A stretch of DNA of 55,211 bases from Candidatus Omnitrophota bacterium (GCA_018824145.1 JAHJHC010000041.1:1-55211), one strand, 5' to 3'. Positions 1 to 40,908 are shown, counted from the first letter of the stretch. Numbers and translations: made by a program. The notes: generated by a model from the sequence alone, not told the origin.

Positions 1-46
1 AGCAGGGAAGGCAGATTTACTCAGCAGTATTAGTCCGGATGTAATT

Positions 47-2700
47 ATGGGTGTAGTTGGAGTTATGGTGTTAGTTGGTGGACTAGTAGTATTAGGTAAT
101 TATGTACGCAACTATTACATCAGATCCGATCTTGCAAAAGCCAGAAGCCTGACCAAAGAAGCACATGAAAGTATCACAAAATCCCAAGGTGCTTCTGACA
201 ATAGAGCCGCCAGGAAGGGATATATTAAATATGCGATGCGGTTATATGAAGAAGCAATTGATTATTATAGACATGCATTTGAGTTAGCCTCAAAAGGCCA
301 GAGAGATAAGATAAGGGCAGAATTAAATCATATCGGAGATGATTTATTCTATAAATACGACCTTAAAGACCTGTATGCGTGGTTCAGGAGCCATCCTGCT
401 AATCCTGTATCGCCAATCAAAGCCCGGCCTTCTTTAATAAGTTCAGCATCAGGGAGGACGTTGAAAGGCGTATCTTTACCAAGGTTACCAGGTAAATCCG
501 TTATTATGTGGATAGTAGGAAGTTCAATGCTATGTGGAGTTCTTAGTTTGGTCACAAGGGTGTATGAGCAAGTTCAGGGTATAAGTACCCCGCTGCCTGG
601 TTACGTTGAGGGCATTGTTGGTGTTGGCAGTGAGGTTGGCAGGGTTATCGATATCAGTTTTTCTTCTGTAGTTTTGTTTATTTTAATAATTGTCCCAACT
701 TTCATTTTTGTTATCCTTTTATTGACTGCAAGTCAAAGGTTTAACTTTGCAAAAAAGATATTTACAAAAGCCGGCAAGATAGCAGGTGTGGAAAGGATTA
801 TAGGAACGCCGGATCCAAATGTGCTCTCAAATCCTGATTTGTTTCAAGAAGCACTTGACCGAGGAGAATATCCCTTTATACGCGGATTGCCCTTTTTGCC
901 GCTTTTTATAAAGGAGAAGTTATTCGAGTATGTTTCCGACAGCCTTAATATAGGTACTTTCGTACAGGGACAAATAAGTATAGCTGCCAATAAAGGCATC
1001 TTTTTCATTAAATGTGTACTTGGAGTGCTTATTTTAGGAGGAGGGGCAGGCCTTCTAGTTACTCTAGCAACATTCAGCCCGGAATTTATTCAAGATGCTG
1101 CTTCAAAACCTCTCCTTTGGATTGGAGGAATGACAGCTTTGACGGTATTGAGCATGATCAGTGCTTTGATAAATGGCTTATATAGTATGGCGAATAGAAG
1201 AACCCCGGCAGGTGTATCATTAAAAGCGAGAAAGCCGTATGATTTGGCACAGATCGCAGCCGAAAAACAAAGATTAGCAAATAAAGCATCCCCTAAGGCA
1301 TTGGCTGCAGCAGGAATTTTAGCCGTGATAGGGATAGCAAGCTACATTCTTTCAGACGGGGATGCTACTGATACAATATATGCCATTGTCCTGAGTTTTC
1401 TTCCGGTTTCAGTTATTTTATACTCATCTGTGTTTGGTAAATTTATGAAGCACAAGGAGAATATCTCTGGCATTATGAAATTTATAGGATTTATTCTTCC
1501 GATTGGGAAAAAACATGTAGACTCAGCTTTTGATATTCAAACAATAGCAGGCCCTGGTCGTTACGATACAGGACACGGCCAGGCAATTCAGAAAGGATTA
1601 AATCGTGTATGGATTCCTTTTAGCGTGGGTACAGTAACGGCGGTGGGAGGATTGCTTATAAAGGTTTTAATTGATACCCCGGATAAACTTAGTAAGGCAC
1701 TTTTGGGGGTATCAAATGGATTAATATGGTCTGGTGTGTTAATAGGGATCTTTTTGTTAATGGGGGGATTCTATGCTTGGCTTGGACAGAAGAATTTTGA
1801 GCTTGAAAGTCTGACTGACAGAGCAAAATATACAGGTTCCGATACTAAGCAGACTATTGTGCCTCTTCACAGAAGTCAAAGGATTGTTTTAGTTTTCGTA
1901 GGTATTGTGACAGCCGTTAGTATGGCGCTGGTTGCCATGGAACAGCTTACTGTGAGAGAAGCCATGTTTATTATTGTACCCTTTGGAGTATTGGGTCTTT
2001 TATCCATCATAGGATTGGGTATAGGCGTACTCTTTTATAGAGGTAGCGGTTTTCTTACGCAGCGGCGGGCCTTAATCAATGCCAGGAAGATAGGAGGCTC
2101 CATTTTCGCGAGGACACATTTTACTTTTGCACTTATTGGTATTCTAGTTGTGGCAGGCCTTACGGCTTCAGGTTATATAATGGGATGGTGGGGCAGATCC
2201 AGCAGTGGTATTGCTGATGTTTTTTCAAAGGATATTAGCGGATGGGGATGGTTAGGATTGGGATTAATAGGAGCGTTAGCAATCGGGTTATTTTTCAAGG
2301 TTATTTGTGAGAGGATTAGTAGAAGTAGTACTTTAGGTAAGATAACAGTCGGATTAGCAGCTGCGGCAGGGGCTATTGTGTTATGGGGCCCTAAAGCAGC
2401 AGAGAAGATTTCAGGCATAGTTTCTTCTATTGGCAGCGGTGGTGCGTTGGAAGCTGTAGCCCCTACACTAAATCAGGCAGACTCAATAGGAATAGCTATT
2501 GTGGCAGTACTTGTATTGTTGACTGTTGTAATGGTTTTTACGGTAGGAAGACGTAGCGGAGTTGGGTGCCTTATCGTACTTATTGCAATAACAGCTGTAG
2601 GTGCAGCGGTTGCTGCTCCATACTTAAGTGAGCTGTTAGATAAGGTGTTAGGTCCTGGCGGGCTTAGCATGATGCTGGGTCCCCTTGGCCTTGGTTTGGT
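47..2700 (+). other. N-terminal polytopic membrane region of the giant ORF (about 17 hydrophobic helix-length segments by eye)
   Basis: Successive 18-26-aa hydrophobic stretches separated by short polar or basic loops, e.g. [77 protein letters not shown]. Confidence 0.7.
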
Positions 2701-5700
2701 GGGTGCGGTAGTGGGCAGTAGTAGAGATTATTATAATGTTTTAGGAGTAGATAGGACTGCATCCAATAAGGAAATTAAGAGAGCCTATCGTAGAATAGCC
2801 AGAAGAACGCACCCTGATGTAAATCCAGGGAATCCGCAAGCAGAGGCGCGCTTTAGGGAAGCCAATGAAGCTTATGAAGTGTTGGGGGATGAAGAAAATA
2901 GAACACTATATGATAGATTAGGTCATGGTAGCTACTCCTCGACTCGCCGGAATCAATCAACCTCTTGGATGGGATGGCAGCCTCATTCCTCAGCAACACG
3001 AGGAAGTCAGCCAGGTTTTGATACAGGAGCTGCAGCTATGTATACCGTCGATCAACAAATGATGGATGAATCTAGGGATAGAGTTCGTCAACAGATGCGT
3101 GCAGCTATGGCTGGATTCAGTCAACAGATGTATGAAGCTACGGCTAGATTCGATCAACAGAAGGCTGCAGCTATGACGTATAGTTCAATGTGGAAATTTT
3201 TAGGAGGTGCTGGCAGTAGCGCTAATCATACCTCTCTTGAAAGTTTGGTTAAGAGATTATGGACATCTTGTACTGCCACTGGTTCAGGATACCGCGGCGT
3301 TGATCAAGAACTTATTTCAGGACTAGTCGGATACATAGATCTCCCGGAAGTACAGGAGGTATTAATGGCTGCATTCTTTCATGATATTCAACGCAGCATT
3401 AATCTTATATCTCGACTTGAAGTAGAGATGATTGCTTACATCTTTGATCTGGTTTCTGAAGTTAAAGATGACGATGTTTTAGATAATGTTGGCTCGATCT
3501 TCAGTGGACTGGGACCAGACTTGGCTTGGAGTATCTTTGTTTGCCAAGACGGAGAAGGACAAAGGATTATTTCAGATAGAAGTCTGGGAATAATATTTAA
3601 GAGGATGGAAGTCGCTTCTTTAGGAGAAGTGTTAAGAAGGGTTGATAGCAGCCTTGAAGCATATTCATTGGATTATTCTTTAGGGGAACAATTAACAAGG
3701 CGTGACATAGATCTTGTAGCAGAATTATTGAGTATTAAGCAAATTGCCCCTAAGTTAGTTGTGGATATCCTTGATTATTTTGACTCCAGAGGCGATTCGA
3801 TATGGTCAACGCAGGTTTTGGAGAGCATGGAATCTAGGCGCATCGCTGAGATAATGAATGCCTACCTTAGAAAGGTTTTCGGGAACACAATGAGATTATC
3901 AGACAGAGAACAAACCAGATGTGCAGGGATTCTAGGTAAATTACCTGGGGCTTTACTTTTCGATGTTCTCCCATTACTGGAAAGACGATTTTCTTGCACC
4001 ATGGCACCCGGTGAACCCGCCGAAAAAACTCCTCAACCTTCTCATTCATTCGCTGCAGGTTTGTTTGGACTAGGCGCAATTTTAAATAATGCCCAGGAGG
4101 CCCTGACAGGAGTTAATTCTAGTTCTATTTTATCAGGACTGACGCAACATGTGCCAGGCTTAGGCCCTTCCTCCATTAACTGGCAGACTCTAGCGGTGGG
4201 CGTGTTGATAGGTGGGGTGGTGGCGTTGTTGGTATTACTAGCTATTCAGGTGCGTCGGATTTATCAACGCAAGGCCGATAGGGAAGCAAGAGTTAATGAT
4301 ACGGAACAAGTCAGGGAGGTTATTGTCTACACCGCATCATCGGATGTGGAGTATTGCCTGTTTAGGGGGCCTACGCAGTTTCCTGTAGAAGGGCAGATAT
4401 TTGGAACTACACACTCTGTCAATCCAGATGAGCCCTTGCATCGAACACTTTATGCTTTGGGTGATATAGGTAGAAGCAGAGACGAAGGTTATTCATACAG
4501 TCAGATGAGGAGAGTTGACTCTAGCGGAGATAGTAGAACTTATTATTCTACAACTTCTAAAGATAGAGAGGAAGTTAGGGCTTTAGTATGTTCAGAGCCT
4601 GGACTTCTTGCTGAATTATTACGCCGTGAAGCAGCGGATCCAGACTACTGGGGTAAATGGAGGAGTGACTGGAGGATTACTATCCGCGATGTGATTGATG
4701 TCGTTGTTCGCCATGCAGAGATGGAAGATGAGCTTATTGAGGCATTACAGGGGTTAGGATTTAAGGATTGGCGGGAGTATATAAAACACTGGAGGAGCGA
4801 AGATGGCCGCCCTGATTCAGAAGGACTTTTTAGAGAGATAGCGAGATCCACTCATAGGTTTTTTATGGATTTTACTGATGGTGAAAACCCGGCATGTCCG
4901 GATTCGGTTATAAGAGAAGATGAAGGGACCGGATCTATATGTTTGCAATTTGGCGATGATGTTATTTCTCTTGTTGAAGCAGGTGTTTCTGTAGAGAAGA
5001 TGGAGTCGGATGGTGAGGTATATTATGTGGAACGTAAAATATCACCGACGAATATAGGAGGATTCTTTATCGTTATTCTCGGAGGTCTTTTAGCAGGCAT
5101 TGAAAATGATGTGAATGATGCACTTGATAGGCTGGATAATGCTTTGAAAAGGTATGAAGAACTTACGAAACATAAAGGATTTTCTTTCCAGTGGTACACT
5201 GCCGAAGGAGAGCCATGTAAAGAAACGAGATGGATAAAAGGAGAGGAAAAAGAAGGTTTCTGGGTATCGACCGTAGATTCAGGACTTTATGCAGCATTTG
5301 CAATACAAGCAATGGGACTCTTGAGGGAGATATCTTCAAGCTACCCTGGATATAGGGACAGGATAGATGGAATAGTACAACGGCTTGATAGGACAGTGCA
5401 GGAGATGCGATGGGATATATTGTATGATGGAAAGGATAATGGGGATAATAAAGCGTTTTTTACAGGAGGATTGCTTACTGGAGAAGGAGAATTTTTAATT
5501 CCAGAGAATGCTCATTACGATATGATTAGCGAGGTTTTGTTGGCCATTATAGTTGGTATACTTACTGGATATGTGCCAGAGGAATGCTTTACTCATCTTT
5601 GCAGATGGGTGGACCCGGAGAAAGTGCCTCTGCCAGAAGATTCTCATATTGGTACGTGGGATGGTACTACGTTTGCTTGGGCATTGTCGTATTTATTGAT

Positions 5701-8700
5701 AGATATATTAAAGACCCATCCATTAATGCAACAATCATTAAAACAGCTTGTTGTACTGCAGGATAGAGATGCGAGAGAAATGGGAGAACCTCTTGCGCGG
5801 TCTGAAAGTTGTTATTTGGTGCATGATGATAATGGTAGAGCTATTGAGAGGTATGGGGCTATAGGAAGTAGGCGTATAGCTGCAAATAATAGAGATTCAG
5901 AACTCTTGGCAGAAGGATTGCCAGCGTCGGCCTATTCAGCTGGGTTAACATTAGTAACGAGTCCTGTGTTTAAGGAAATAGCATATAAAGTCTACCTGGA
6001 TTTTATTTGGTATGTAGCACAGGGCAACTATGATCCGAAATATGGTTTCGGAGATTCAATGGATTCAGACAGACGTTTAGCTAATCATCAGGCATGGCTT
6101 TTTATGGCGTTATTGCCGTATATTCTTGAAAATAGGAAAATAATTGATGATGCTTTTCTTAGTCACCCGTGGAATCGTGAAGGAGCAATTGCCCAGGGAG
6201 ATTTTGTAGTAGGCTTATTAAATGGCGATACTGACGGAAGGGCAAGGCTTGTAATGGATGCGATGAAAGAGTGTGGAGTTATAACAGCCGAAGGGCGCTA
6301 CACAGTACCTCAAGGTGGAGAGATCAGGGCTGTTCAGGGCGAACTTCAAAAGGCGCTTGTTAGTAAAGGGATAGAAGACTTAGATGCTGGAGAGGTAATA
6401 GCCTTTGTGTTAAAGAGAACTCAAGAGAAAAAAGGTAGGCTTGATGGGGAAGAAGGTTTACTTTATAGAGACCCTCGAGAATTGCCGTTATTGCTAGGTA
6501 GAAATGAGGATGGAAGTATTATGAGGGAATGGGGAGAGGTCAGACAACCCGGAGGTGTAGCTGAAACCTTAGCAGCTGTTAGTGGTTTCAGTACCTTAAG
6601 CCAGTTGCCGAATTTTCTTGGAGGAGCTCAGGATTTTCCTGACATTTCATCTAGCTGGCCGACTCTCCAGGGTTTCTTTGAACAGGCATCTGACTTGGTG
6701 AGGTTGAATCAGGAAGGGGTATTGGCAATACTAGCAGTGTTGCTGGCGGTTGTTATAGTAACAGGCATAGTAATAGCAGCATTAATTCTAATAACTCGGG
6801 TCCTTCATACTTATAGGACCCGGGAGACTGAAACCCAGTCGGTTTCACCTGAAGAAAGGATTCCTTCTGGTGTATCTCTTGAGTTAAGGGACGGATTTTT
6901 AAGATTTTTAAGAGAGACATTTATTGAAGGTGTACATGTAACAGCTGATCGTATATGGCAGGAAATGCCTGAAGATCTTAGAGGGAGTATTCCAGAAGAA
7001 ATGATGCTGGTTATTTTGCAAGACGTTTCTCGCTCAGGTGATATTTTAAGATTGACTATTGAGGGAGTAGAAGTTTATCTTTTGATGGACCTGGAGCGTG
7101 TTACAAGTGAAAGCTCGATCATTAAGAGAATATTGGGAACGCCTTTTTATACTGGCACAGGCGGAGGTATGGCTGATATTCTGAGAAGCGGCCACTGGAC
7201 ATTTTTACCTCTAAATGTACGCGGTCGTTATCTAAGAGAGTTATATGCAGGCCTCACGTTAAAGGAACAGGCAGTTGTAGACTTATTTATTGACGCATAT
7301 GTAAGTATGGCAAGGACATTGCCTGAGGGATTAAGGGACCAAGTGCCAGAAGAGTTAAGAGAAAGTTATACTGATGACTTTCTCGATGATTTTCTTTCAG
7401 AGGAAAATCTGGAAAGGCTATGGCAAAAGAGGTGCCGTATCTTATCAGAAGAGGATTATAGTCAAGCACCAATGGATAAAGAAAAGTTCAAACAAAGTTT
7501 TGCTGCTTTAATAGAAGATACAGATAAAGTTAAGACGTTGCTTTCCGCATTAAATAAGGGATTTGAGTCTCTGCGCCAGGACATGCCCAATGTAAAGACC
7601 TATAGAGAAAGGGATGGGTTGGTCCATGGTATAGAAGAGTCAATGTATGCGGCGATTTCTGATTTAGTGGATATACAGTATCCATCAGGTTCCCCGCGGC
7701 CTGATTCGTTACGTATACCTAATAGGGAAGATGATTTTTACGGCAGGATGTGTCGTTTCTATGCAGAGATATTTGCCATGGCTTACGAGCCTACTTATGT
7801 AGCTAAGCCGACTTTTGCTTTATACTGTGTAGCAGAAAGGCTGAGGCAGGAGATATTTGGTTTGGAAGATTTTTTTGAGATGGAAAAATACAGGGCGAAT
7901 TCGGCAGCGTTGGAAATATTCTCTGCATTTCATGATGAGTTAAAACCGTTCTCAGGATGGGATATTCCTGAAGATGTTCAGAGCTCTCCTTTAGGTGCGT
8001 ATAGAGAAAAACTTCCAGTAGTGCAAAAGCTCTGGGATAGATACGGAGCAGATTTGACTCTGAAACAGCCTGATTATTATATACGCAGGTTGGTGTGGAT
8101 GCATAGAAAATTGGAGAGGTTGTCTTTGCTTTGTGCAATAGCAAATGCTATGGATTTCGGTGACCCTAAGTTCCAGCAAGAGGCGCAAGAAGCAGGGTTT
8201 GATGAAAAGGCATGGATGGTAGATAAGATAGAGGAGGGGCTTGAAAAAGGCTTTTACGAGAGCGACATTGATGAATTTTTTGAGATCGTAGGCGCTGCCA
8301 AATTGGAATTTGAAAGAGTAAAAGAAAATAATGGTTGGTCTGATGATGATGAGAGGATTGATGACAGCAAACGGCCCAAGATAATCATATTGACTGACAA
8401 TGCAGGCGAGACAGTCTTGGTCATGTTACTGGTTGGATTTTTATTAGCACTTGGTTTTAATGTTGTTATTGCCAGCCGCGATGTACCTGTAATAAATGAT
8501 ATGACTCGAGAGGATAGCAAATCATTACTCGAAGAATTCAGAGAAAGAGGATATTTTAAGAAATACGGCGAAGAGCGGCTTAAGGTGATTTCGTCCGGTG
8601 CAGCTATGTTTGCCACTCCACCTGCTGACTTAAGCACAGAGTTTTTAAGAGAATATAATGATGAAAATACTGTCTGTGTCTTTGCCATGGGACAGGGTAA

Positions 8701-20700: not shown

Positions 20701-23700
20701 TATTGTCCCATATATTATTGACTTTAGCGCTTTTCTATATAGTTTTACACTTACCAATATTCAGCCATTTATTGCATCCATAGGCGTTCTTACATTTCTA
20801 TTGTCTTGTGTTGCGATTTTTTATCGAATCGGGAAAATATTATTTGGTCCCGATGCGGCATCAAAGAAATTTGACCGGTGCACGACTGTTTTGAGACGGG
20901 TCAGTCGAGTTACGTTTTTGCTTGTAGTTCCCGCCCTATCTTTAATTACGGCGTTTGTTATATTGATTCTATGGTTTGCTCCAGAATTTCTTACTGTACC
21001 AGTAAGTTCTCTCCTTATGATGTTGCTGGAAAGATTGGCTTTGATAGGTATAAACAGCCCTACCTTGATGTCGCTGGGCAGTACAGTGTTGACTGCCTTA
21101 CCCATAGGAGTGGCAATGGTTGTAGGAGATAGGGCTTTCACTGAAGATACGTCTGGAGCGGATGGTAGTAGAGTGGCGCCTGGCTCGACGGATTCTGCTT
21201 ACGATCCATTAGTGGCTACAGGGTATTTAGCTGCAAAGCTTACTCAAGAAGAGCGACTGGTATTTATTGGACTCCTTCGTGGATGGGTTGATGAACGACT
21301 TAAAGAAGAAATAGGTCTGGAATATACAACGTTGAGCCTCATATTAGGTACCCTCAACAATAAGCTTCTTTGGGAAGGTGGTTCACCACGGGAGAAGCTC
21401 ACCAAAGCAGGTATTTTAGGAATGGTAAAATCACCTTTGGAAACCAAGGAACAAGAAATACTCGAGGGATTCCTGCGTGGATTAAGGTATGAAGAAATAG
21501 CCAGAACGTATTACATAGCACTAAAATCGATAAGTTACTACGCTTCTGGTATAAGAGGGAAAATTCGACTAGAAAGAGAAACTGAATCCGAACATAAAAT
21601 GACAATTTTAAAGCTATTTTTAGCACGCGGGGTAATACCATCCAGGGGCATATATTGCAAGGTCACTGTTGAAATTCATCGCTGGCTCATTGAACATGGG
21701 TTTCTTGTATATCCTTTGAGGCCGGCTAGAGAGCAGCAAGGAAGTGATGTCCTGACTGCTGGGAAGCCACCTTTGAGTGCCATGGAGGCGCTTGTTCTTT
21801 ATTGGACTGTGCATGGGATATTATCCGATGGTGAAATGGCTGCGAGGTATGGAGTGAGTGAGGACAATATAAGTGTTTACCGTGCTACATGTAAGGAAAA
21901 AGTGTTTCCATTTCATCAAGGTTCGTTAAGGAGTAAACTCAGGCAGAATGGTCTACTGGAAGAAGGTGAAGCTGCTCAACGATTATTAGGTTTTAGTCTT
22001 CCTCCAGCGGTCCACAGGCAATTGTATTCGGGTCAATTAAGGATTCTTGAGGTCTTGAATCAGAGTCCACATCTTTCCAGAGAAGCCCTATCTAGATTGA
22101 CGGGGTTAGAACCTAATAGTGTAAGAACATATATATTTGGATTGTGCAAAGTTTTTGGGGTACCAAAGGGGCTTGTGCCTACTAAACGGAGAGATGCCCT
22201 CGTTCCTGCTGTATTTGGATTAGCAGATAGGAATATTTCTTCGACTAGAGATTCTGAAATAAAAGCATCTACAAGAAGAAGAACTGGTGCTAAAGAATAT
22301 GATGATGATTTCATAAGAAGAAAAACAAACGCAATGATTATGGCTTTGGGTGGCTCCAGTGTGCTCAATCAGGTACAGCCATTTGCTGAGGAGGCTACTA
22401 AACAATGGGTTCAGGGAATCCCTAACTTGGCAATCGTATTAGGGGCGCTGGCACTTGCTGTTGGTGTTGTTTGGCTGGTCAAAAATCTCCTCGACGACTA
22501 TACGAATCTTTGGCTGCCAGAGAAGATAGTGACTTTGAACGTAGAGATTCCTGTCGAGGTGGATGGTAAGATGCAATGGGTGGAGAAGAAAAGGAAGTAT
22601 GAATTAGTCAGACAGGTTGAACAAAGTGGATTTGCTGCCCAGGTTTGGGAGGCAAGGGTAGAGGGTACTGAGGAGAGAGTAGCCTTAAAGGTATTTCGAC
22701 CAATTGGCAAAAATGGAAAGATTCATAGGCAAAGTCGCATGTTGGCATTTCAGGATGCTAGGCCAAGCAGGGAAGAGGCTCAGATGGCAGTTTCTATGCG
22801 AAAGATTGCAGGTATTCTTACAAAATATCCTGAAATATACGAGCTTATGCTTGAGGAAGCAAGCGCGATTTATGGAGGAGAAAATAATGACGTAATGGGA
22901 AAACTGCAAGAGTTAAGAGATGGGATTGGGCCATCTCTTGTAACGCAGGCTAATGCTTATGGTTGGTCAGATGCACATAATGCATCATTCCTTGAATTAG
23001 AATGGGAAGATAATGTGAATACTGCACGGTATGGTTATTTTTCAGGCCTGCTTGATGAGGATATGCGTCTTCAAGCTCTCTTTATGCGTGCTTTTTGCAG
23101 GTTGCTTGAGAATATTGGTGCAGAGGGGTATATACCTCAGACTTATATAGGTAAGACTTTATTTGGTACATCTGAGCCAATAGGTATAAAGTATCAATTA
23201 GGCATAACAGCAGCAATGTTGGTTTCTTTAGCTACATTTTTCCTTACAAATTCTTGGCCTGTAACATTATTGCTTTCTGTCACAGTTCTTTTTGTCCTTG
23301 GTCATTCTGTCGGTGGTTCGTTTTTCTCCTGGGATAACATTTTCTGGAGTGGAAAACGAGGAATCGGTTTAAAGACTCTTGACCTTGAGCCAGGACTTCC
23401 GCGCGGTGGACCATTAGGTGGTATCCTTTGGCCAACATTTGTCCCGAGACTCTCTATTGCAGGTTTAGTAGTTTTGGCATCATTTTTTAGTGGGATTCCA
23501 TTTTATGTGGCTGGGTGTTGTGCCTTAGTCTTTTTGATTGTTACTTCGCCTGGATGGTTATTTCCTTTTGAGTTTGGTGCTGTAAGTAAAATGAAGAAGG
23601 CAGGTTTTGGTCCTAATTTAGGGGCGATGGATGTTGATGCTGCAGAGAGACATATCTCGGGTAATTATCAGGTTGCAGGAAATTATGATATTGATGAAGA

Positions 23701-26700
23701 AAAAATAAGCATGCCGCTTAGAGATTATCGTGAACTATTCTGGCACCTTGACCAATATAGAGAAGCACAAGAAGCTAATTCACGACGTCAGATTAATATC
23801 TGGAGTTATGGCTTAGATTTTATCCGTGACCAGGCACGTCGGGAAGCTATACGCGAGTTCAATATACAATACTGGCTGGATGAAGGTAGGATTTCCAGTA
23901 GCATGGCTACTTATCTGCAAAGTTGTCCTGCTCCAATATATTTCTTATATTGGTGTGAGAGTCATATACCTATAGTAGGCCGTGTGGTTGGCAATAGAGA
24001 CTATCGAGCTTCAATGCGTCGTTTATTTACTGACAGCGATTTCTTTAAAGAACGCTGGCATGCTTACCGTCAGGCAAAACTTGATAAGATGCATGCCCAA
24101 GGTAGGCTAGGAAAATCTTTATATAATAGCCTTTACCCAGTACTAGAAGTCAATGAATGGGTTGAATGGCCGAATAACCGCCAGTTTATCTTAAATGTAG
24201 CGCTTAGTTACTGTACTCCAAGCCCTATCCATCACTTTTTAGTTGACAGAACGTATCGGCAGGAGGCAGTGGATAAGTTCACCAGCCAAGTTTCTATTAT
24301 GGTAGGTCCTGTTGTAGGAATAGGGCTTTCGTTATTGATATGGCCGCTACTTCCTTCCAGGGAATTCTTTTGGGCACTGGTGGTTTCAGTTATTGGGAGT
24401 GTCGTTGGAGCAGTAGTTAGTATGAGATTTTCAGATATGAAGTTCTTAACGGAACGTTCTGAAGAGGCTGAAGAAGATTTCAAAGATTGGGTCAAGGAAG
24501 GAGCAGAACAGTATAGGATTACTGAATCTTGGCAGGAGAAATTATTGGGGTTACGGAATGAAAAAGTTATTCGTGATTATATTAAGATATATGGTGTGCA
24601 GTTAGCATCTAAACTTGTCGTCTGGTTATTGCGGATAATTTTAATGGGTAGCATATTTGTAATTACCGGTGAATTCAATGTTCTTTCTGGACTCTGGGCC
24701 TTTGCGATACCTAGTGCTATTTGGAGGACTGTTACTACTTTAATTGTTATACAAGATTATAGTTGGTGGGGCCGTTTGAGGTGTTTTTCTGTTGCTTTAC
24801 TATTTGGTATTCTTCCTATACCTGGATTAACGTATCTTACAATGCCTTTTCAGATGCTGGTTGGTCTTATATTTTTCCCAGAGCGTGACAAGTTGGCCTT
24901 CCTACTTATCTTTGAATGGGAGTCTTTGATCGAAAAAGCCTGGGGTAAAGTGCCTGGTTGGGGCAGGACGACCTTAGCGCTATATTATTGGAACCTATAT
25001 TTGGCCAGGATACCAATTATGTTTATTAAGAAGGTCTTTCGTAGAGATAAAAGTAAAGAAGTTGAATTAACGTATCCTAGTATTATTAGGGCAGATAGCA
25101 ATACACCAATTTTGACCCACCACATCACACCCGGAGAATTATATGTAACTTCTATAGCTACACTTATCCTTGGTCTTGTTCCATTTGTCTTAAAGGCTGC
25201 GTGTGGATGGGATGTCCCTGATATAGTTCCGTACGTAGCGCTGGTTTTGGGATTAGGGTTGTCAGGGTTTTTGGTGAGTTTGGCACGATCTATTCGTCGT
25301 ACACTTGATAATTTACCGAATACTGAGATACGTGCCGGGCCTATTGATATCTTGCTTAAGAAAAAATCAGAACAAGCAGAGCTTATTCCTCAATTCACTC
25401 AATCTGACCTTGTAAGACATGATGCAAAAGACCACATCGCCTACTATAGTCCAAAAGACAAAGCTATCCACATTAACCCTAAAGCACTTGCCCAATACAG
25501 AAACTCCATCCAACACCTAATCTGGATAAAGGAAAGAACCCAGCAGGGATTAAGATTACCTAGAGCTTTAAATGAGATTATATCTTATACATGGATGGTT
25601 TTATGTATTGTGCCGGTAGTGTTATACCATGGTGTATATCTGAGTATTTATTTTTCAATAATAGCAAGAAGAGAGGCACGACGTGAACGTGAACGTGAGG
25701 AAAAATTGATGGGCCGGCTTGATGAAGCTTTTGATGCCCTTTATAGTCACACACCTGTTATTGAAGGAAGGCAAACAAAGAGCGTTAAACATGCGAAAAG
25801 CTCTCTTCGTCGGTTAGTAGATAATAAGTGGAAAGGAGGAGATGCTGATAAGGTGTTAAGTTCTGAGCAACTTAATGAGCTTGAGAGAATGGCTTTTCTA
25901 ATAGAGAGATTTCGTACGTATAACGAGTCAAGATTCTTTAGAGGAAAGACCCCAATTATTTTAAATTTTGAAGAAGCAAGACTATTAGCTTTGATTGCAT
26001 GGTATCCTGAAGAAGATTTGAATATATCAGGCTTAGCTGAGAAGTTCGGTGAACCAAAGGACACAGTGGTGGGAATGGTTCGTGTTCTGAATAGGTATTT
26101 TGGTATTGAGGATTTGGCACGCAGAGTAGAGTTAAAGGAATTAAGAAAAAAATTACGAATGAATCTTGGTATAAGAGGTGAAGCACTAATTATTGGACAT
26201 GGGGTCTTGCCTAGTGAACTACCACAGACAGTAGCGGAAATTGACCCAGGATTCGGCGAATTAGCACGGATCTTCTCGGTGAAGCTCAGAGCACATCGAG
26301 AAGCAGGGATTGATCGGCCTTTTATAGTAATGGTGAAAGGAGCAGGTGGGGTAGGCAAGACGACATTGATTCGTGTAATGAAAGAACGTCTGGAAGAGAC
26401 TGGATTACAAGTCGCTGCACCAGATAAGGTGGCGAGTTGGGATATATTAGGTTACCGACCGTGGCCTAGCTATCAGTACATAGAAGAACAACATAGAGAT
26501 GCTGATGTAATATTATGTGAAGCCACAGATGTGTTACCACCAGCAGGTGATTACGTTGAATTTTTAGATTTGTTTGTTGAAGTTAGATCAGAAAGATCTG
26601 TCCGGAGAAAGAGAATGAGAGCTATGGGAGTTTCTGAACCAGAGACAGAACGGATAGTGAATTCTCGAGTAGCAGCTAATTATGAAGACCATCCGCCCGA

Positions 26701-29700
26701 TGTTGTCATTGTCAACGAGAAACCGGATAAGACATGGTTTAGAGCGGAAGAAATAGACAAGTTGATTGGAGACAATGTAAAATTCATTACGTCTATCCAA
26801 AGCCAGGGTGAAGTATCAGGAATATCTCAAGATACATTCTTACCTTTGGCTCAAAAGCTTCTGAAAGAACCAGCGGATAGAGTAGAAAAATTACAAGCTC
26901 TACTAAATACTGAGTTCCAAACCCTGATCAATCAACTTTCTGAGAGATTAGGCAGTGAACGGGCAATATGGCATATCTTGATGCGTTGGAACCAGACAGC
27001 AAGATTAGAAGGGGCAAAAGAGCTATCTGTTATTTTAGCTGGCAAGTGGTACCAAGAATTGGCAGCTATGGTAGCGGAGATCGAGTCGTTAAAAGCTAAA
27101 AGGATGCAAGTAGAAGGGGGCGATGTCAAAGGTGTTACAGGCTTACGGACTAGAACAGAAGATGAACACCACTTTATGATGTGGTCAGAAGATCCTGACC
27201 GTAATGGCACTAGTCCACATAAGGCAGAAGAATTCAGGTTTGACCCTGGAGATGTGCATATAGGAGATACAAACTATACATTTAGGAAAGAGCGGGGACC
27301 TACCTTTGAAGGTTTTCCAGAAACATCATCTAAAGATCGAAGATACCTTAACCGTTATTTGAAGAATTTGATTAAAGAGGTTAAAGCAGGTAGGCCTGTG
27401 CTTGTAGTTGTTTCTCCCCAGACAGCTGAGCAGATGAGAGAGTGGGCCAAAATTGGCTGGCTTAAACGAAGAGTAGAGCTACTTCTACAGGATGCCATTA
27501 TCGTAGAAAAGGAACTTCACTATGACTCTGTAACTGAATATTACACTGAGGCACAGAAAAGACTTGCCGCGAATAGTGGTCAGTCTGATAAACCTCCTTT
27601 AGTGGTAGGTATTGGTATGGGTACGGTTTGTGACTGGTCGAAAGTCATCGGTCATAAACTCGGAGTCAATGTTCATCTTATTGTGACTGCGACTTCAACG
27701 AATGCACCTTTTACTCCTAATATACTAATACGTGACGGGTCGGGAGATGATTTCCGGCAGTTTAGTTATATGACAGGTGCAGCTGAACAAGTCATTGCTG
27801 ATGCATCTTTAATGAGACTTAACCCGAGAGGTAATATTGCAGGGGCTGGGGATTTATTCAGTGGTTGGGTAGCGTTGCTCGATTGGATGTTAGCGGTTCA
27901 TCTTGGCGTTACTGAGATGACTGAGGAGGAGCGAGCTATATTTGAAGAAGCCCATGTAGTGTTAGAAGATTTGAGCTCTCTTGCTACTATCATTAAGGAT
28001 AATACTCCTAAAGGCATTGAAGAATCAGCGAGACTTGCTATGCGAATATCAGCGCTTATGAGCCGTGCGAGAAATGCAAGGCCAAAGGCTGGAAGCGATC
28101 ACTGCGTTGCCTACAGTATGGAGGTTCAGACACAGGGTAGAAAAATGCTTCATGGAGAGCAGGTTGGCATCTCAACTCTATTAATGCTTGCACTGTATCA
28201 TATTGATAAGGAAAACCTTGAAAGCGGAGATTTTCCCGTAGATCAACTTAACGAGCAATTTTTACAAGAACGAGGCCCATCTGCTATTGATGACCTTAAG
28301 GTATTCTTTGAGAGACTAGAAGAAAGACCTGAACTGTTTCCAAGTCTTGATGAAGCGCGAGACATGGTTCGAGATTTAGGACTTCCTGTATCACTGGGCG
28401 CCCTGGCTTTGGTGGATGGAGAGGAGGGTATGAGTGTTATTGAAGCCGTTGAATCTTTAGTTAAAACCCAGCTTGACGATCGTCGGTTCACTTATCTAAA
28501 CGTCTTTAAGATTACCGAAGAAAAAACTATCAGGGCTGTCGCAATGGTTCTAGGCTTGACACCTGAGGAGGTCTTAGCCAGACAGACAGATGAATTACTA
28601 TCAACCAGTGTACCAGAGGAAATTCCAGCTCCTTATAGAGACATACCTGATGCCTCTGATATTCCAGGATCCATTGATGATATTGCCAATAGAATAATCA
28701 GTGAATGCAGAGAAGGTAACTACGATTCATTGCATCTTGATTGGTCTAAGAAGATGTTCTTTTACCAGGAGTTTATAAAAGAGGCTGCAGCAATAAATAC
28801 TGCCATTAAGAGAATTATAGCATTTCCAGCAGAAGAACAAAGTCAATTTGCTAACTTCTCGGGTTTTCTTGAGGCTGCCATTGCAGCAAGACTTGATATG
28901 ATTAAGCGTTATCAAGCACCATTATCTACCAAAGGAGAGAATGCCGTAAGGTTACTTGAAAAGGCTGTACAGACAGAATCTATGGATCAGTATGTTAATG
29001 CTTATAGCACTCGTACTGAACTGCTCGGAGATGTATTAAAAACAGTTATGCTTCCTCCTGCTATGTGGTTTGTGCCTTTATTGGAAGGGGAAAGGAAGAA
29101 GATATATGAAGATAATATAAGGCAGAAAGAAGTAAAAGTAGCTGAAATAAGAAGAGAACAGAGTAGAGTTGTAGCTACGGATGGATGTTCTAGTCAATGC
29201 GACCACTGTGACATGGCAGCCACCTTTAGGGTTGTTTCTATGCCGTGGATATGGCTTGAACAGGCAAAAGATGAAGTAGGAGCACCAGAGGTTATGACCT
29301 ACAGGAATGACTTTTTTGTAGATTATTACGATATTATTTATGATACAGATGCGAGTGATGTTGTAGATTTATTTAATCCAGAAACTATATTTTCTGCTGT
29401 ATTTGTACCAGGTTCTGTAACGGATAGAGCTTTAGGGAGATTATTAGGGTCAGGAGAGGGGAAGAGAACATTTGTTTTAAGCGTTGCGCCGAGTGCTTGG
29501 ATGCGTAAAGTTGGCGTAGAGAAGTATTGTGAATATGCAGTGGCGATTAGAAATAGAATTACCGAATATAACGATATACAAAGAGGAGATAGGCCTAGAG
29601 TTACTTTCGCTTGTTGGTTGTTTTTATTTCAACGTAAAGACGAACCGGATTTGATTGATACTATAAGAACCTATATCTATCAAGGCATGAAATCTGAGGA

Positions 29701-30556
29701 GATTACCTTAGCATGGTTGGATCGACTGGGTAGATTTAAGCAATTAGAAAGATCTGGTGAGATAGATTCAAATACAGTAGTAAATGAAAATATGCCACCT
29801 GGGATGAACTTTGAAATATGCGATCTTGGACGACGCATGTTTCTTGCTGATGGACAAGTTGCGCAAGGCACAGTGGTTTCTGGAAGGCAGTTTTCGTTCG
29901 AAACTATCGAGGGATTAGGTCCTATAGGAAGAGAACGTATAAACTGCCCTTATTGCAAATCCTTGGATTGCAGAGGTGACACTGAAAAAGGATGCCCAGG
30001 ACGAGAAGAGTTTTTTGCTGCACAGGGTTTATCTCCTACTGGCGGCAGGCCAGCTGTTGTTCAAGCTGCAGGTTTCTTTGGGTTTGGTGGACTAGGTCGA
30101 TTTTTAGGGGAGACGCAAGTGAGTCCCTTGCAGGACTTCTTTACGCAAGGTATACAACCAGCCTTATCATGGCTTGGTTCTCATGAGGGGCTGTGGGTTA
30201 TTGTTGGGATTGGTGCGTTTGTTGTTGCAGGAGGGTTACTGATTTTAGGTTATTTGGCAGTTAGAAGAGGCTATCTAAAAATCAGAAAAATCAGGGACAC
30301 ATCCCAATTTCCTCATGGGGATTTACAACGGGAAAATTGGGCCCCGTCTCTAGTTCTCCCTTGGGTTGGATTCCCTACGGTTGGACTGATGTTGATTACT
30401 GGGATGTCAATTAAAAGTTTACCTCTTTTATTAATTGGGACACTTTTTGCTATCGGCCTTATGATTTTTATGCAGCGCGAAGAGATTAATTCGGGGACAG
30501 GTGACGAGCTTGATGGAATCATAAAAGGACACAAAAAAAATAGAGTGTGCTTGTAA
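47..30556 (+). CDS. Giant multi-domain polytopic membrane protein (>=10,169 aa); probably 5'-truncated by the window edge
   Basis: Single stop-free frame for 30.5 kb in AT-rich DNA. All other-frame and antisense ORFs inside it are short. Several recognisable domain motifs are in frame (J-domain HPD, LuxR HTHs, Walker A, DUF89 DNAGE, CxxxCxxC). The same frame is also open from nt 2 to the ATG at 47, and there is no GGAGG-type RBS before nt 47. Confidence 0.9.
2726..2930 (+). other. DnaJ-type J-domain inside the giant ORF
   Basis: [67 protein letters not shown] aligns almost position-for-position with the canonical J-domain, including the HPD tripeptide. Confidence 0.92.
4121..4250 (+). repeat. 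Junction module type B, copy at 4.1 kb ([10 protein letters not shown] ... W ... TM)
   Basis: [43 protein letters not shown]. The stretch tctattttatcaggactgacgcaacatgtgcca differs at only 2 of 33 nt from 20105-20137. Confidence 0.8.
5056..6180 (+). other. (alpha/alpha)6-barrel glucoamylase-like / DUF3131-GH144-like (beta-1,2-glucanase-type) region
   Basis: The ordered motifs [19 protein letters not shown] ... [26 protein letters not shown] ... [16 protein letters not shown] ... [10 protein letters not shown] ... [11 protein letters not shown] ... YGFGDSMD (6041-6058) ... [14 protein letters not shown] resemble the conserved helix-loop pattern of glucoamylase-like (alpha/alpha)6 domains. By-eye only. 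Confidence 0.45.
7740..8830 (+). other. DUF89/ARMT1-like (damage-control phosphatase family) module, motifs largely intact
   Basis: [17 protein letters not shown] (DNAGE at 8396-8410), VINDMT, and [10 protein letters not shown] (8690-8710) match the DUF89 pattern DNaGE ... ND.T ... KGqgNyE. A helical region of about 200 aa precedes it. Confidence 0.6.
9040..9610 (+). other. Left-handed beta-helix (hexapeptide-repeat, acyltransferase/GlmU-C-like) region
   Basis: Runs with hexad periodicity of small or aliphatic residues: [50 protein letters not shown] and [53 protein letters not shown]. Confidence 0.6.
9745..10840 (+). other. Second, degenerate DUF89-like module
   Basis: Same layout and spacing as the first copy but with altered motifs: [18 protein letters not shown] (NNAGE at 10400-10414), PIDDNYD instead of ND.T, and [11 protein letters not shown] instead of GQGN.E. 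Confidence 0.4.
14168..14258 (+). repeat. Conserved TM element type C, copy 1 ([14 protein letters not shown])
   Basis: [30 protein letters not shown]. The core gtcgctaggcagtacagtgttgacggccttacccc..ggagtggcaatg is nearly identical to 21067-21117. Confidence 0.85.
15905..16790 (+). other. Array of four tandem LuxR/GerE-type helix-turn-helix units
   Basis: Four consecutive ~63-aa units: [52 protein letters not shown]; [43 protein letters not shown]; [52 protein letters not shown]; [45 protein letters not shown]. Each matches L(T/S)xRExxVLxLxaxGxtNxEIAxxLxISxxTVxxHxxxIxxKLgv. Confidence 0.85.
17735..18135 (+). other. Array of two LuxR/GerE-type HTH units
   Basis: [54 protein letters not shown] and [53 protein letters not shown]. 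Confidence 0.7.
18209..18385 (+). repeat. Junction module type A, copy 1 ([10 protein letters not shown]...QPF...KQWV.GIP + TM)
   Basis: [48 protein letters not shown]. About four-fifths of nucleotides are identical to 22328-22477 in a hand alignment over ~150 nt. Confidence 0.85.
20102..20270 (+). repeat. Junction module type B, copy at 20.1 kb
   Basis: [24 protein letters not shown]...[21 protein letters not shown]. The window start ([29 protein letters not shown], nt 2-110) looks like a third, partial copy. Confidence 0.8.
21043..21133 (+). repeat. Conserved TM element type C, copy 2
   Basis: [30 protein letters not shown]. About 5 mismatches in 51 nt versus copy 1 by hand alignment. Confidence 0.85.
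21239..22175 (+). other. Array of about four divergent LuxR/GerE-like HTH units
   Basis: [43 protein letters not shown]; [43 protein letters not shown]; [44 protein letters not shown]; [47 protein letters not shown]. The pattern is retained, but several consensus residues are lost. Confidence 0.5.
22328..22492 (+). repeat. Junction module type A, copy 2
   Basis: [48 protein letters not shown]. Paralogous to 18209-18385 at both protein and nucleotide level. Confidence 0.85.
22590..23020 (+). other. ABC1/UbiB-like atypical-kinase N-lobe motif
   Basis: [31 protein letters not shown] resembles the ABC1/UbiB signature (aaSiaQVh.A.l..G..VAVKVqrP); the Lys is at 22688-22690. The downstream [10 protein letters not shown] resembles rVLtmEwi.G. 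The rest of a kinase fold is not clear. Confidence 0.35.
26320..26730 (+). other. P-loop nucleoside/nucleotide-kinase-like module (Udk/PRK-type layout)
   Basis: Walker A GAGGVGKT at 26339-26362 follows a hydrophobic strand (FIVMVK). [12 protein letters not shown] is a Walker-B-like strand. [20 protein letters not shown] resembles the Udk/PRK 'ifvd.d.d.rl.RRi.Rd' segment. Confidence 0.55.
27225..28510 (+). other. Glycerol-1-phosphate dehydrogenase / glycerol dehydrogenase-like (Fe-ADH/DHQS superfamily) module
   Basis: [10 protein letters not shown] ... [40 protein letters not shown] ... [36 protein letters not shown] ... [11 protein letters not shown] ... [14 protein letters not shown] (28151-28168). 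The order and spacing match the G1PDH/GldA pattern (GGG..D.aK ... vPT.aS.dg ... D...i..aP......aG.GD......DW ... H ... HGe.Vg). Confidence 0.55.
29150..30000 (+). other. Radical-SAM-like module (CxxxCxxC) with a C-terminal Cys cluster
   Basis: [18 protein letters not shown] contains C-x3-C-x2-C at 29186-29209 in a typical strand-loop context. About 250 aa later, [21 protein letters not shown] gives C-x2-C-x4-C-x7-C. No other radical-SAM motif could be verified by eye. Confidence 0.35.
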
Positions 30557-32924: not shown

Positions 32925-32942
32925 AAAAGAGGATGATTGAAA

Positions 32943-33788: not shown

Positions 33789-33860
33789 ATTGCACACAAA
33801 AGAGGTTATTTTTGTTGTAATGTAGAAATAATTCAAAACAAGAAGGAGGGTAATAAAAAA

Positions 33861-35117: not shown

Positions 35118-35170
35118 CTTAAACTTTCCTGAAAATATCATAACCGTGATGAAATAGGGGAGTTGAAATC

Positions 35171-39621: not shown

Positions 39622-39624
39622 TAA

Positions 39625-40842: not shown

Positions 40843-40908
40843 TAGTATAATTTGACAAGATAGAAATAAGAGATTTACAAATTTGTATTTTATTGTGAGG
40901 AGAAAGTG

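Follow-up and report, generated by a model that had tools for sequence, protein, structure and literature searches.

The window analyzed here, which is the entire 55,211-bp NCBI contig, carries on its plus strand one giant open reading frame (ORF) followed by a same-strand cluster of sugar-uptake and glycan-degradation genes (30721..55025, +). From the first ATG of its frame to its only stop codon, at 30554-30556, the giant ORF (47..30556, +) comprises 10,169 codons. Across the same span, the other plus-strand frames contain 883-908 stops and the minus-strand frames 296-644, and the longest rival ORFs, on the minus strand, reach 150-203 aa, which confirms an earlier note on this DNA that had described one frame stop-free for 30.5 kb among short competitors. 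Since out-of-frame stops occur at ~9% per codon, a 30-kb stop-free frame arising by chance is excluded. Base composition by codon position follows GC1 > GC2 > GC3 in 20/20 slices of 1.5 kb, the same pattern as in the downstream genes. An alternative genetic code was ruled out because the frame is devoid of all three stops and the neighboring genes are normal-sized under table 11. DNA tandem repeats are limited to two small ones (115 and 189 nt, ~1% of the ORF), and self-matches of the protein are confined to helix-turn-helix (HTH) arrays, a pair of DUF89 domains, and short transmembrane (TM) cassettes. This stretch, more than 30 kb long, is thus a genuine coding gene and not a chance frame. 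Rfam and tRNA scans gave no matches, and a generic HTH was the sole match in a PADLOC scan, so that a reading of the locus as a defense system is without support.

The start of the gene, previously set at position 47, required correction. The frame is already open from base 2 of the contig, and the ATG at 47 is merely its first ATG, with no Shine–Dalgarno (SD)-like motif before it; a GGAGG-type motif precedes most of the downstream genes. As the window is the whole contig, the gene is probably 5'-truncated by the contig end and continues upstream; its coordinates are better given as 2..30556 (+), for a product of at least 10,169 aa. A contig of a sister assembly (GCA_018812485.1, JAHJDO010000137.1) shows 99.99% identity over 20,984 nt and carries a called gene of 9,392 aa that also reaches its contig end, at ~nt 2306 of the window, so that the frame stays open there for at least 28.2 kb. 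The last 3,171 aa of the giant are 100% identical in this gene, and there is no base difference between the two NCBI assemblies across the last 9.5 kb of the giant, although the two may go back to common sampling sites and assemblers and are hence not fully independent. This contig was the sole orthologous locus found, and the N-terminal 500 aa, when used to scan GTDB genomes and JGI metagenomes, yielded neither a relative nor a 5' extension. A Logan contig also breaks within the gene, at nt 30128; with three assemblies breaking in or at the gene, the region is hard to assemble.

The host is the GTDB placeholder JAHJDO01, an uncultivated bacterium from Fennoscandian deep groundwater. Omnitrophota was rejected as the host phylum, because the population is 99.99% identical at the nucleotide level to GCA_018812485.1, a JAHJDO01 genome in GTDB that has been described as a reference for a yet-to-be-defined sister phylum of Omnitrophota and Elusimicrobia (PMC12057145). 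The earlier pointer to giant ORFs of Omnitrophota was therefore the right lead with respect to the protein, which shares modules with large Omnitrophota proteins, but not with respect to the host phylum.

The encoded protein is rich in hydrophobic helices. A strict hydropathy rule gave 50 segments (~57 helices) and greedy peak picking gave 63; both counts are approximate and include at least two false positives, for an overall number of ~55-63. The many hydrophobic helices previously seen by eye (60-70 proposed) are confirmed, with a hydropathy count of 50-63. Four large polytopic blocks can be delineated on the plus strand: block 1 (47..2722; aa 1-892) with ~17 hydrophobic helices, block 2 (13136..15715; aa 4364-5223) with ~13-14, block 3 (20186..21127; aa 6714-7027), and block 4 (23192..25666; aa 7716-8540), which encloses a 236-aa dark loop (aa 7842-8077). 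A further cluster of 3-4 hydrophobic helices lies near the C-terminus (30188..30475, +; aa 10048-10143). Some of these elements are reused along the chain: a 16-residue helix segment of block 3 recurs at aa 4709-4736 with 71% identity, and a cassette composed of a juxtamembrane segment and a TM helix is found at 18200..18340 (+; aa 6052-6098) and again at 22319..22459 (+; aa 7425-7471), the two copies sharing 70% identity in the midst of unrelated soluble modules. The loops of block 1 show a regularly alternating K/R bias, and the J-domain described below falls on the K/R-rich side, which the positive-inside rule predicts to be cytoplasmic. Past block 1, both helix parity and the signal of the positive-inside rule become ambiguous, so that a whole-protein topology attempt was interpretable for block 1 only.

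Between the TM blocks lie soluble modules unrelated to each other, as expected from the earlier description of a mosaic, polytopic protein, which our analysis bears out. Directly after block 1, a J-domain (2720..2938, +; aa 892-964) matches Pfam DnaJ (E 6e-25) and PDB DnaJ (E 6e-20) and retains the HPD motif at aa 922. Two DUF89/ARMT1-like damage-control phosphatase domains, 29% identical to each other, are located at 7784..8734 (+; aa 2580-2896; PF01937 E 1e-23 to 8e-35, with NCBIfam matches) and 9890..10705 (+; aa 3282-3553), on either side of a left-handed beta-helix (LbH; hexapeptide, GlmU C-terminal-like) at 9071..9610 (+; aa 3009-3188) that scores under curated cut-offs. The previous identification of these modules, i.e., the J-domain and the two DUF89 domains with an LbH, was therefore correct. 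LuxR/GerE HTHs form an array of four domains (15878..16747, +; aa 5278-5567; Pfam GerE E 1e-57, a self-built HMM, and PDB DevR/GerE/NarL), followed by two more (17726..18100, +; aa 5894-6018; self-built HMM) and a seventh (21434..21583, +; aa 7130-7179). Including a marginal eighth copy at aa 7242-7284, this amounts to seven clear copies plus one or two marginal ones, fewer than the ten or so first suggested. A P-loop NTPase (26297..26716, +; aa ~8751-8890), with a 10-residue Walker motif at aa 8765, scores under the Pfam cut-off, and its GAGGVGKTT sequence is AAA_16/STAND-like, so that the P-loop stands but the kinase label given to it does not. Two other proposals, a GH-like barrel and an ABC1-like motif, found no support in any search.

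For the two most C-terminal soluble modules, relatives could be traced outside of this gene. The first of these (27308..28219, +; aa 9088-9391) was correctly recognized as G1PDH-like at the level of the DHQS/Fe-ADH superfamily, with a match to PDB 4rgq (E 3.6e-15) and 15/19 near-invariant family columns kept, including GxG..D..K, three Asp, and two His. It matches NCBIfam NF002022 with E 1e-23 and 83.9 bits, far under the equivalog cut-off of 413, which together with the retained residues makes it a member of the superfamily and of a related subfamily and not a demonstrated G1PDH. It resembles the archaeal EgsA and bacterial AraM enzymes in its nucleotide-binding GxG..D..K and near-invariant Asp/His residues, and differs from them in its score and in its own subfamily. 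Indeed, its closest relatives, at 43-46% identity, constitute a separate subfamily whose members are fused to Xre HTHs, DIT1/PvcA, B12-radical-SAM, or ROK+SIS, or are embedded in multi-kaa proteins.

The second, which we call module A (28667..30070, +; aa 9541-10008), represents a conserved Pfam-dark family in which the GCSxQCDHC motif (aa 9713-9721) is invariant and a 4-Cys cluster near the C-terminus (aa 9967-9983) is conserved. The CxxxCxxC within the former (nt 29186-29209) is invariant in 7/7 aligned family members and is the one feature behind the earlier radical-SAM-like label, as PF04055 (Radical_SAM) did not match module A at E<=1. Five relatives had no Pfam match either, a family profile found no relative among PDB sequences, and an AF2 model from a 3-sequence MSA was unusable (pLDDT 47). 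Stand-alone members of the family carry Sec-type signal peptides, and such signal peptides are atypical of radical SAM enzymes.

Module A also occurs in four metagenome ORFs that are open across their entire ~21-kb loci (at least 6,900 aa), and proteins of 2-6.5 kaa contain members of its family or of the G1PDH-like subfamily, five of the six named ones being annotated as Candidatus Omnitrophota. These large relatives are themselves mosaics with TM segments. The homology to other giants holds at the module level only, with no colinearity. Relatives of both modules also stand alone as proteins of 400-1,000 aa, and for both modules the small relatives begin with Sec-type signal peptides. At least two modules of the giant are thus related to large Omnitrophota proteins, and their presence in both JAHJDO01 and Omnitrophota points to either exchange or common ancestry across phylum boundaries. 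Module A defines a dark GCSxQCDHC family that recurs in giant genes as well as in a small signal-peptide form, the latter offering a tractable handle for biochemistry.

Most of the protein remains dark. Named families cover ~16% of residues, and about two thirds of the protein is without a detectable relative in Pfam, NCBIfam, PDB, and homolog searches, in line with the previous estimate that over half of the soluble sequence is free of recognizable motifs. Pfam-dark soluble modules extend over 2939..7783 (+; aa 965-2579), a region interspersed with single helices at aa 1382-1400, 1667-1685, 1826-1844, and 2231-2249 and including the supposed GH-like barrel. The largest dark soluble block (10706..13135, +; aa 3554-4363) matched no family, PDB sequence, or word-indexed homolog. 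Within a limit of 8000 candidates, aa 1-1000 and aa 3540-4367 gave no match in word-indexed homolog searches, not even the query itself; this cap probably concealed any weak relatives, so that both results are weak negatives. A permissive Pfam scan (E<=1) of ten dark modules returned HTH and P-loop only, and a single-sequence AF2 model of aa 1686-2223 was unusable (pLDDT 40).

Downstream of the giant, the cluster opens with a solute-binding protein (SBP) gene that begins 164 nt past the giant's stop, with no terminator-like site in between. It encodes an ABC sugar importer consisting of an SBP (SBP_bac_1/8) and two permeases (BPD_transp_1), a ROK regulator, and then, in order, GH42, GH94, GH57, an OMP beta-barrel, GH94, GH99, and GH99/71+CBM9, and continues with a TPR histidine kinase, an OmpR-type regulator, and a 1,268-aa FG-GAP/PQQ beta-propeller protein. 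This neighborhood of SBP, permease, and GH genes is the one published for Omnitrophota giants. The top GTDB match of a GH94 neighbor came from FCPU426 (62%), a single-gene observation that does not amount to a placement.

Taken together, we consider it likely that this locus encodes a genuine, very large, 5'-truncated gene of JAHJDO01 that belongs to the TM-rich mosaic multi-enzyme giants. Its product would be one inner-membrane polypeptide whose ~55-60 helices, most of them grouped into four large polytopic blocks and the others into smaller clusters or standing singly along the chain, hold mutually unrelated soluble modules at the membrane. Facing the cytoplasm would be the J-domain, the P-loop NTPase, the arrays of LuxR HTHs, and the enzymes (NAD(P)-type G1PDH-like and DUF89), although the Sec signal peptides of small relatives suggest that some of these "cytoplasmic-type" modules could be exported. 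Positioned right after the first polytopic block, the J-domain may recruit DnaK/Hsp70 to the chain, in which case the giant is proposed to help chaperone itself during folding and insertion. At the cell envelope, the protein may function along with the co-oriented sugar-uptake and glycan-degradation genes, and the gene may have grown by accretion and shuffling of modules equipped with reusable TM anchor cassettes.

This interpretation has to be weighed against several alternatives. The least credible is an assembly artefact, in which unrelated genes were joined in frame as a chimera or strain variants were collapsed: three assemblies do break inside or at the gene (at window base 1, at ~nt 2306 in the sister, and at nt 30128 in Logan), but the base identity of the two NCBI assemblies over the last 9.5 kb, the long open frame of the sister, and the even GC1/2/3 along the ORF all argue against it, and a stop-free frame of this length could not arise by chance, so that we give this explanation almost no weight. 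It is also very unlikely that several proteins arise by initiation at internal sites on one long transcript and that the open frame is a by-product of gene fusion. A few in-frame SD+ATG combinations would fit such starts, e.g., at aa 8555, where the C-terminal soluble region starts just behind the final TM of block 4, but these are not enriched (13/221, or 5.9%, vs. 21/325, or 6.5%, and 7/80, or 8.8%, in the other frames), and 10,169 stop-free codons need selection on read-through translation. A polyprotein precursor, cut by a cis or trans protease into membrane-anchored enzymes and regulators, would account for the unrelated modules, for TM-bounded stretches that could stand alone, and for the free-standing relatives of module A and the G1PDH-like module. 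Omnitrophota giants often have an N-terminal C39/S8 peptidase by which they might be cleaved, and the N-terminus of this giant is probably missing. Still, Pfam and NCBIfam reveal no protease domain in 10,169 aa, there is no repeated linker or cleavage-site motif beyond the two anchor cassettes, and processing has no experimental evidence in any giant of the class (West-Roberts et al. 2023, bioRxiv 10.1101/2023.11.21.568195), which makes this reading improbable.

Somewhat less improbable, while still unlikely, is a mostly extracytoplasmic surface weapon or adhesin, similar to archaeovorins, whose exported modules act on prey or host envelopes. The signal peptides of the small relatives and the glycan importers and glycoside hydrolases downstream fit this possibility, and most domains of giants are predicted to be extracellular (West-Roberts et al. 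2023). However, the modules that can be identified are of cytoplasmic type (a J-domain, which depends on DnaK and ATP; LuxR HTHs, which bind DNA; a P-loop NTPase; and a dehydrogenase of the NAD(P) type), the topology of block 1 places the J-domain inside, and the giant itself has no lectin, CBM, dockerin, peptidase, or GH domain. This unusual set of J-domain, 7-copy LuxR HTH, and G1PDH-like modules, all of cytoplasmic type, thus bears on the choice between a surface weapon and a membrane-tethered cytoplasmic scaffold. Within the favored reading of a membrane-bound multi-enzyme giant, a more specific and speculative version, which we consider improbable as a whole, is that of an as yet undescribed kind of covalent, self-chaperoning membrane scaffold combining DnaK recruitment, membrane-based HTH tethering, and a bound pathway, encoded by a shuffled gene with modules from a cross-phylum pool. 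If so, the seven LuxR HTHs might tether specific chromosomal DNA or regulate transcription from the membrane, and the DUF89 phosphatases, LbH transferase, G1PDH-like dehydrogenase, and new Cys-motif enzyme might make up a pathway bound to the membrane that possibly serves polyol-phosphate or lipid-headgroup chemistry.

Comparison with known systems helps to delimit this protein. Its J-domain with an intact HPD directly after TM segments is reminiscent of bacterial DjlA and eukaryotic Sec63, but the weak matches to both span the J-domain alone, with nil similarity elsewhere; DjlA is small and Sec63 is a dedicated translocon subunit, whereas here the J-domain is one module in at least 10 kaa. 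NRPS/PKS megasynthases and giant RTX/Ig-like adhesins are also single bacterial ORFs of similar length, but unlike the giant they are not polytopic membrane proteins. Consistent with the earlier note, condensation, adenylation, carrier, KS, and AT domains were absent from all tiles in Pfam and NCBIfam searches, and Ig, cadherin, and RTX repeats from the Pfam tiles. Dockerin-type and tandem-repeat giants (TSP3, NHL, WD, HEAT) share long ORFs, TM or signal-peptide anchoring, and the same lineages and habitats, but the giant has no dockerin, TSP3, lectin, or high-copy repeats, the LuxR HTH (seven copies) being its sole repeated domain.

The closest correspondence is with the Omnitrophota giants described as class 1, "multi-enzyme metabolic cluster" (Nielsen & Lui 2026, bioRxiv 10.64898/2026.06.07.730766), and as the "Archaeovorin" type (West-Roberts et al. 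2023). As in these, an ORF of at least 10 kaa alternates TM helices with unrelated enzyme and regulatory Pfam domains, is mostly dark and a singleton at the whole-protein level, comes from Fennoscandian deep groundwater, is followed by SBP, permease, and GH genes, and is broken at contig ends in short-read assemblies, and the closest large relatives of two of its modules are annotated as Candidatus Omnitrophota. Contrary to the claim that it is unlike the usual bacterial giants, it therefore fits a published class.

Differences from these giants nevertheless exist, beginning with a host in JAHJDO01, an undefined sibling phylum. The on-contig part includes no C39/S8 peptidase, glycosyltransferase, methyltransferase, NUDIX, or GGDEF domain, and no tile of it matched SecA-DEAD (PF07517-type) at E<=0.01. 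A divergent SecA DEAD/preprotein-binding domain occurs in "most" giants and is not universal (West-Roberts et al. 2023), and with a 5' part probably missing, its on-contig absence does not extend to the complete protein. Also published for the class are PilZ genes immediately downstream and, on the upstream side, a type II/IV secretion or pilus cluster; here, the SBP gene and not a PilZ gene comes next, and the upstream side, where both a secretion cluster and SecA-DEAD may lie, is off the contig. The set of a J-domain, seven LuxR HTHs, two DUF89 domains, and a G1PDH-like module is absent from the main text of both preprints. The estimated TM density is above the class average, at ~5.6 helices per 1000 aa (a crude figure) vs. 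~2% of residues reported for the class. Finally, the giant has ~6 distinct Pfams (DnaJ, ARMT1-like x2, Hexapep/LbH, GerE x7, AAA_16, and Fe-ADH/G1PDH-like), with no single repeat dominating, vs. 21-50 in published giants of at least 80 kaa. Proteins of at least 10 kaa have been reported in several phyla neighboring Omnitrophota too (West-Roberts et al. 2023), so that an Omnitrophota host delimits the taxon and not the protein class. Overall, this gene belongs to the known class of TM-rich mosaic "multi-enzyme" giant proteins and opens no new category, and it extends these TM-threaded giants to the deep-branching, unnamed phylum JAHJDO01.

The giant ORF is a real gene: the ORF listing of the window returned a single 10,169-aa ORF at 47..30556 (+ strand), and the longest rivals overlapping it were minus-strand ORFs of 150–203 aa. 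Across bases 1–30556, its frame contains one stop codon (the terminal one), against 908 and 883 in the other plus-strand frames and 296–644 in the minus-strand frames. Out of frame, ~9% of codons are stops, which excludes chance as the source of 10,000 stop-free codons in a row; a genetic-code trick can be rejected, since the frame is free of all three stop codons and its neighbors are of normal length under table 11. GC content by codon position followed GC1 > GC2 > GC3 in every 1.5-kb slice (0.47–0.58, 0.35–0.48, and 0.29–0.38, respectively; 0.47, 0.37, and 0.31 for the pooled downstream genes), hence the entire frame looks coding. Stop counts, ORF listing, and codon-position GC thus bear out the claim of an earlier note that one uninterrupted 30.5-kb frame faces only short competitors. 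G+C is 0.39–0.44 in the giant (1–30556) vs 0.35–0.39 in most downstream genes (32001–52000); because GC3 is similar (~0.33 and 0.31), this gap lies mostly in codon positions 1–2, i.e., in amino acid composition. DNA tandem repeats cover only ~1% of the ORF, and the only two (3061–3175, 33 nt × 3.5; 19169–19357, 93 nt × 2) are short, in frame, with 74–77% matches, and located inside dark modules.

A second assembly also shows the frame open, for at least 28.2 kb. Contig JAHJDO010000137.1 (39,868 bp) of GCA_018812485.1 carries the same locus: 20,984 nt align at 99.99% identity, and the gene called there, 9,392 aa long, reaches the end of this contig. The 3,171 readable C-terminal residues of its product are 100% identical to the giant. 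The two nucleotide differences, at 31027 (SBP gene) and 41256 (OMP gene), leave the giant unaffected. These are the only differences in 21 kb (sister contig positions 9989 and 20218), and both coincide with split genes in the sister assembly (SBP, 102 + 328 aa; OMP beta-barrel, 115 + 142 aa); the last 9.5 kb of the giant are identical between the two. The Logan assembly of SRR2544004, from a Fennoscandian deep-subsurface water biofilm study (PMC5364579), reaches no further than 593 nt upstream of the SBP gene, hence the giant is fragmented there.

The 10,169 aa represent a lower bound, as the gene probably continues upstream of the contig start: the window is a complete NCBI contig of exactly 55,211 bp whose base 2 already lies in the open frame, the ATG at 47 lacks the GGAGG-type motif found at most downstream genes, and ORFs of this kind are systematically cut at contig boundaries in short-read MAGs (Nielsen & Lui, 10.64898/2026.06.07.730766). 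Only 15 codons precede this ATG, and ~1 in 4 non-coding stretches of that length would also be stop-free.

Named families account for ~16% of residues, helices for ~11%, and module A (see below) for ~5%, leaving about two thirds of the giant dark. Family and structure-sequence searches recovered the J-domain, the DUF89 pair, and the left-handed beta-helix proposed from sequence in the earlier note: a J-domain with its HPD motif at aa 892–964 (Pfam E 6e-25; PDB DnaJ E 6e-20), two DUF89/ARMT1-like domains at aa 2580–2896 and 3282–3553 that are 29% identical to each other, and a GlmU-like beta-helix at aa ~3009–3188 scoring under curated cut-offs. The suggested G1PDH-like module was also found, at aa 9088–9391 (PDB 4rgq E 3.6e-15; NCBIfam NF002022 E 1e-23, with 84 bits vs a cut-off of 413). 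Judging from its sequence, this module looks catalytically competent, as it retains 15 of the 19 columns conserved at ≥85% in 82 classical-length relatives, including GxG..D..K, three Asp, and both near-invariant His.

Other assignments held only in part. LuxR/GerE HTHs are present, yet rather than about ten there are seven clear copies, at aa 5278–5567 (four), 5894–6018 (two), and 7130–7179 (one), plus 1–2 marginal ones. The proposed P-loop kinase does have a P-loop (Walker A at aa 8765), but its best matches are of the AAA_16, KAP, STAND, and NB-ARC types and not kinases. The postulated GH-like barrel found no counterpart in aa 965–2579 (Pfam at E ≤ 1, NCBIfam, and PDB; the AF2 model was unusable), nor was any ABC1/UbiB motif found in the giant.

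The site previously called radical-SAM-like belongs to a new conserved, Pfam-dark family. It holds the sole CxxxCxxC of the giant (aa 9714–9721), within module A (aa 9541–10008; nt 28667–30070). An exhaustive HMMER search with aa 8850–10049 returned 946 relatives at E ≤ 1e-3, and module A is 34–40% identical over ~460 aa to relatives that are either stand-alone proteins of 530–560 aa or segments of 2.6–6.5-kaa proteins. In the family alignment, GCSxQCDHC is invariant and a C-terminal CxxCx4CxGx5CxGR cluster is conserved. The CxxxCxxC therefore stands as an invariant family feature, and radical SAM as a candidate assignment for the family: neither module A nor its relatives matched any Pfam family, the family profile had no relatives among PDB sequences, and AF2 on three module A sequences reached a pLDDT of 47. 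Module A relatives include proteins P0001, P0002, P0004, P0008, P0010, and P0151, as well as positions 10001–11300 of metagenome loci L004, L006, L007, and L008, and the module occurs inside giant ORFs of at least four unrelated metagenomes. Stand-alone module A proteins of ~540 aa carry Sec-type signal peptides.

Hydropathy resolved 50 charge-free hydrophobic segments (~57 helices), or 63 greedy peaks; at least two calls are spurious (one within a DUF89 core, one within an HTH). Blocks of clustered helices occupy aa 1–892, 4364–5223, 5599–5870, 6714–7027, 7716–8540, and 10048–10143, and single helices set apart the soluble modules in between. In block 1, K/R counts in 15-residue flanks alternate regularly and place the loop after helix 17 on the positive side. 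From this alternation, the J-domain is predicted to be cytoplasmic, in agreement with its need for DnaK; past block 1, flank counts leave helix parity ambiguous. At their N-termini, the small relatives of both module A and the G1PDH-like module have Sec-type signal peptides. For giants of this type, an extracellular location was predicted for most domains, with TM predictions flagged as unreliable (West-Roberts, 10.1101/2023.11.21.568195). Two juxtamembrane + TM cassettes on the + strand are duplicated at high identity, namely aa 6052–6098 and 7425–7471 (nt 18200–18340 and 22319–22459; 70% identical, 47 aa) and aa 4709–4736 and 7001–7028 (nt 14171–14254 and 21047–21130; 71% identical, 28 aa), while the soluble modules around them show no relationship to one another, a pattern suggesting reuse of membrane anchors during growth of the gene.

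The modules of the giant appear to be drawn from a pool shared with other giants. In BLAST comparisons of the whole giant with large relatives, matches were limited to single modules and colinearity was never seen. Of the six large relatives with names, five carry the annotation Candidatus Omnitrophota bacterium, and the sixth is a partial protein from a Thermoproteota archaeon bin. Two relatives, P0014 (methyltransferase, GNAT, EamA, and TPR domains) and P0015 (radical SAM and HEAT domains), are mosaics too, with ~11 hydrophobic segments each. P0014 (MFC1754598.1), a 3,711-aa partial mosaic including module A, is the archaeon-labeled one; its contig measures 11 kb, and it is possibly a bacterial giant-gene fragment that was assigned to the wrong bin. 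A scan of JGI metagenomes with the module A alignment identified eight loci, four of which had zero stops in the matching frame over the whole fetched ~21 kb; these frames span at least 6,900–7,100 aa and run off both ends, on contigs of 44–128 kb. All four have only module A in common with the giant, and the best of them (L004) encodes ELFV dehydrogenase, URO-D, receiver, methyltransferase, and nucleotidyltransferase domains along with HEAT repeats. The closest G1PDH-like relatives (43–46% identity) are fused to Xre HTHs, DIT1/PvcA, B12-radical-SAM, or ROK + SIS domains. Multidomain G1PDH-like relatives with classical signal peptides include P0003, P0009, P0013, P0022, P0024, P0027, and P0031; in several of these, among them P0003 (two Xre HTHs) and P0009 (B12-binding radical SAM), the signal peptide is mismatched with cytoplasmic-type partners.

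Downstream, 30721–55025 is a dense glycan-utilization cluster, all on one strand, with two GH94 phosphorylases, GH42, GH57, and two GH99-like enzymes (one with CBM9). It also includes an ABC sugar importer, a ROK regulator, and a TPR-histidine kinase/OmpR pair, and ends with a 1,268-aa FG-GAP/PQQ beta-propeller protein. The SBP gene starts 164 nt after the stop codon of the giant, and no terminator-like site was found in this interval, so that co-transcription with this sugar-uptake cluster is possible. SD + ATG sites showed no in-frame enrichment (13 of 221 ATGs vs 21/325 and 7/80 in the other frames), and domain scans including NCBIfam detected no protease domain in the giant sequence present on the contig; the C39/S8 peptidases of Omnitrophota giants sit at the N-terminus (West-Roberts, 10.1101/2023.11.21.568195), a region probably missing here. 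These three results fall short of proving a single polypeptide. Most likely, the giant would be a single inner-membrane polypeptide tethering cytoplasmic-type enzyme and regulator modules, whose built-in J-domain may recruit Hsp70 and which could act together with the neighboring genes for glycan uptake.

The host lies outside Omnitrophota in the strict sense. The sister genome GCA_018812485 is the GTDB reference JAHJDO01, the closest genome to Ca. Piabacter (AAI 43.9%), itself described as "a novel class in an as yet undefined phylum" and placed in a PVC-associated radiation, sibling to Omnitrophota and Elusimicrobia (PMC12057145); in addition, the sole relative of the GH94 neighbor among GTDB representatives is in a candidate division FCPU426 MAG (62% identity). 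That relative is on a 5.9-kb contig (DAOWGI010000084.1) with a 908-aa ORF upstream. No tRNA, rRNA, or Rfam features were found in the window.

NRPS/PKS, RTX/Ig adhesin, and dockerin-type giants were all rejected as the identity of this protein. The earlier view that it is unlike the usual bacterial giants does not hold, as it matches a kind already covered by West-Roberts and by Nielsen & Lui: proteins of ≥10 kaa number in the thousands, concentrated in Omnitrophota and also found in neighboring phyla (10.1101/2023.11.21.568195; 10.64898/2026.06.07.730766), 94% of 916 catalogued giants have TM helices or a signal peptide, ~80% of their sequence clusters are singletons, and one class comprises "multi-enzyme metabolic clusters" (West-Roberts; Nielsen & Lui). 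Still of interest are its set of modules of cytoplasmic type, the sharing of modules across phyla, and the new Cys-motif family. Overall, the giant resembles published ones in size, TM richness, mosaic content, singleton status, habitat, and downstream neighborhood. It differs from them in host phylum, in an available part without SecA-DEAD, peptidase, and PilZ features, in a higher helix density than the published class (an estimated ~5.6 per 1000 aa), and in its J-domain, LuxR array, DUF89, and G1PDH-like modules, which are absent from the main text of both preprints.
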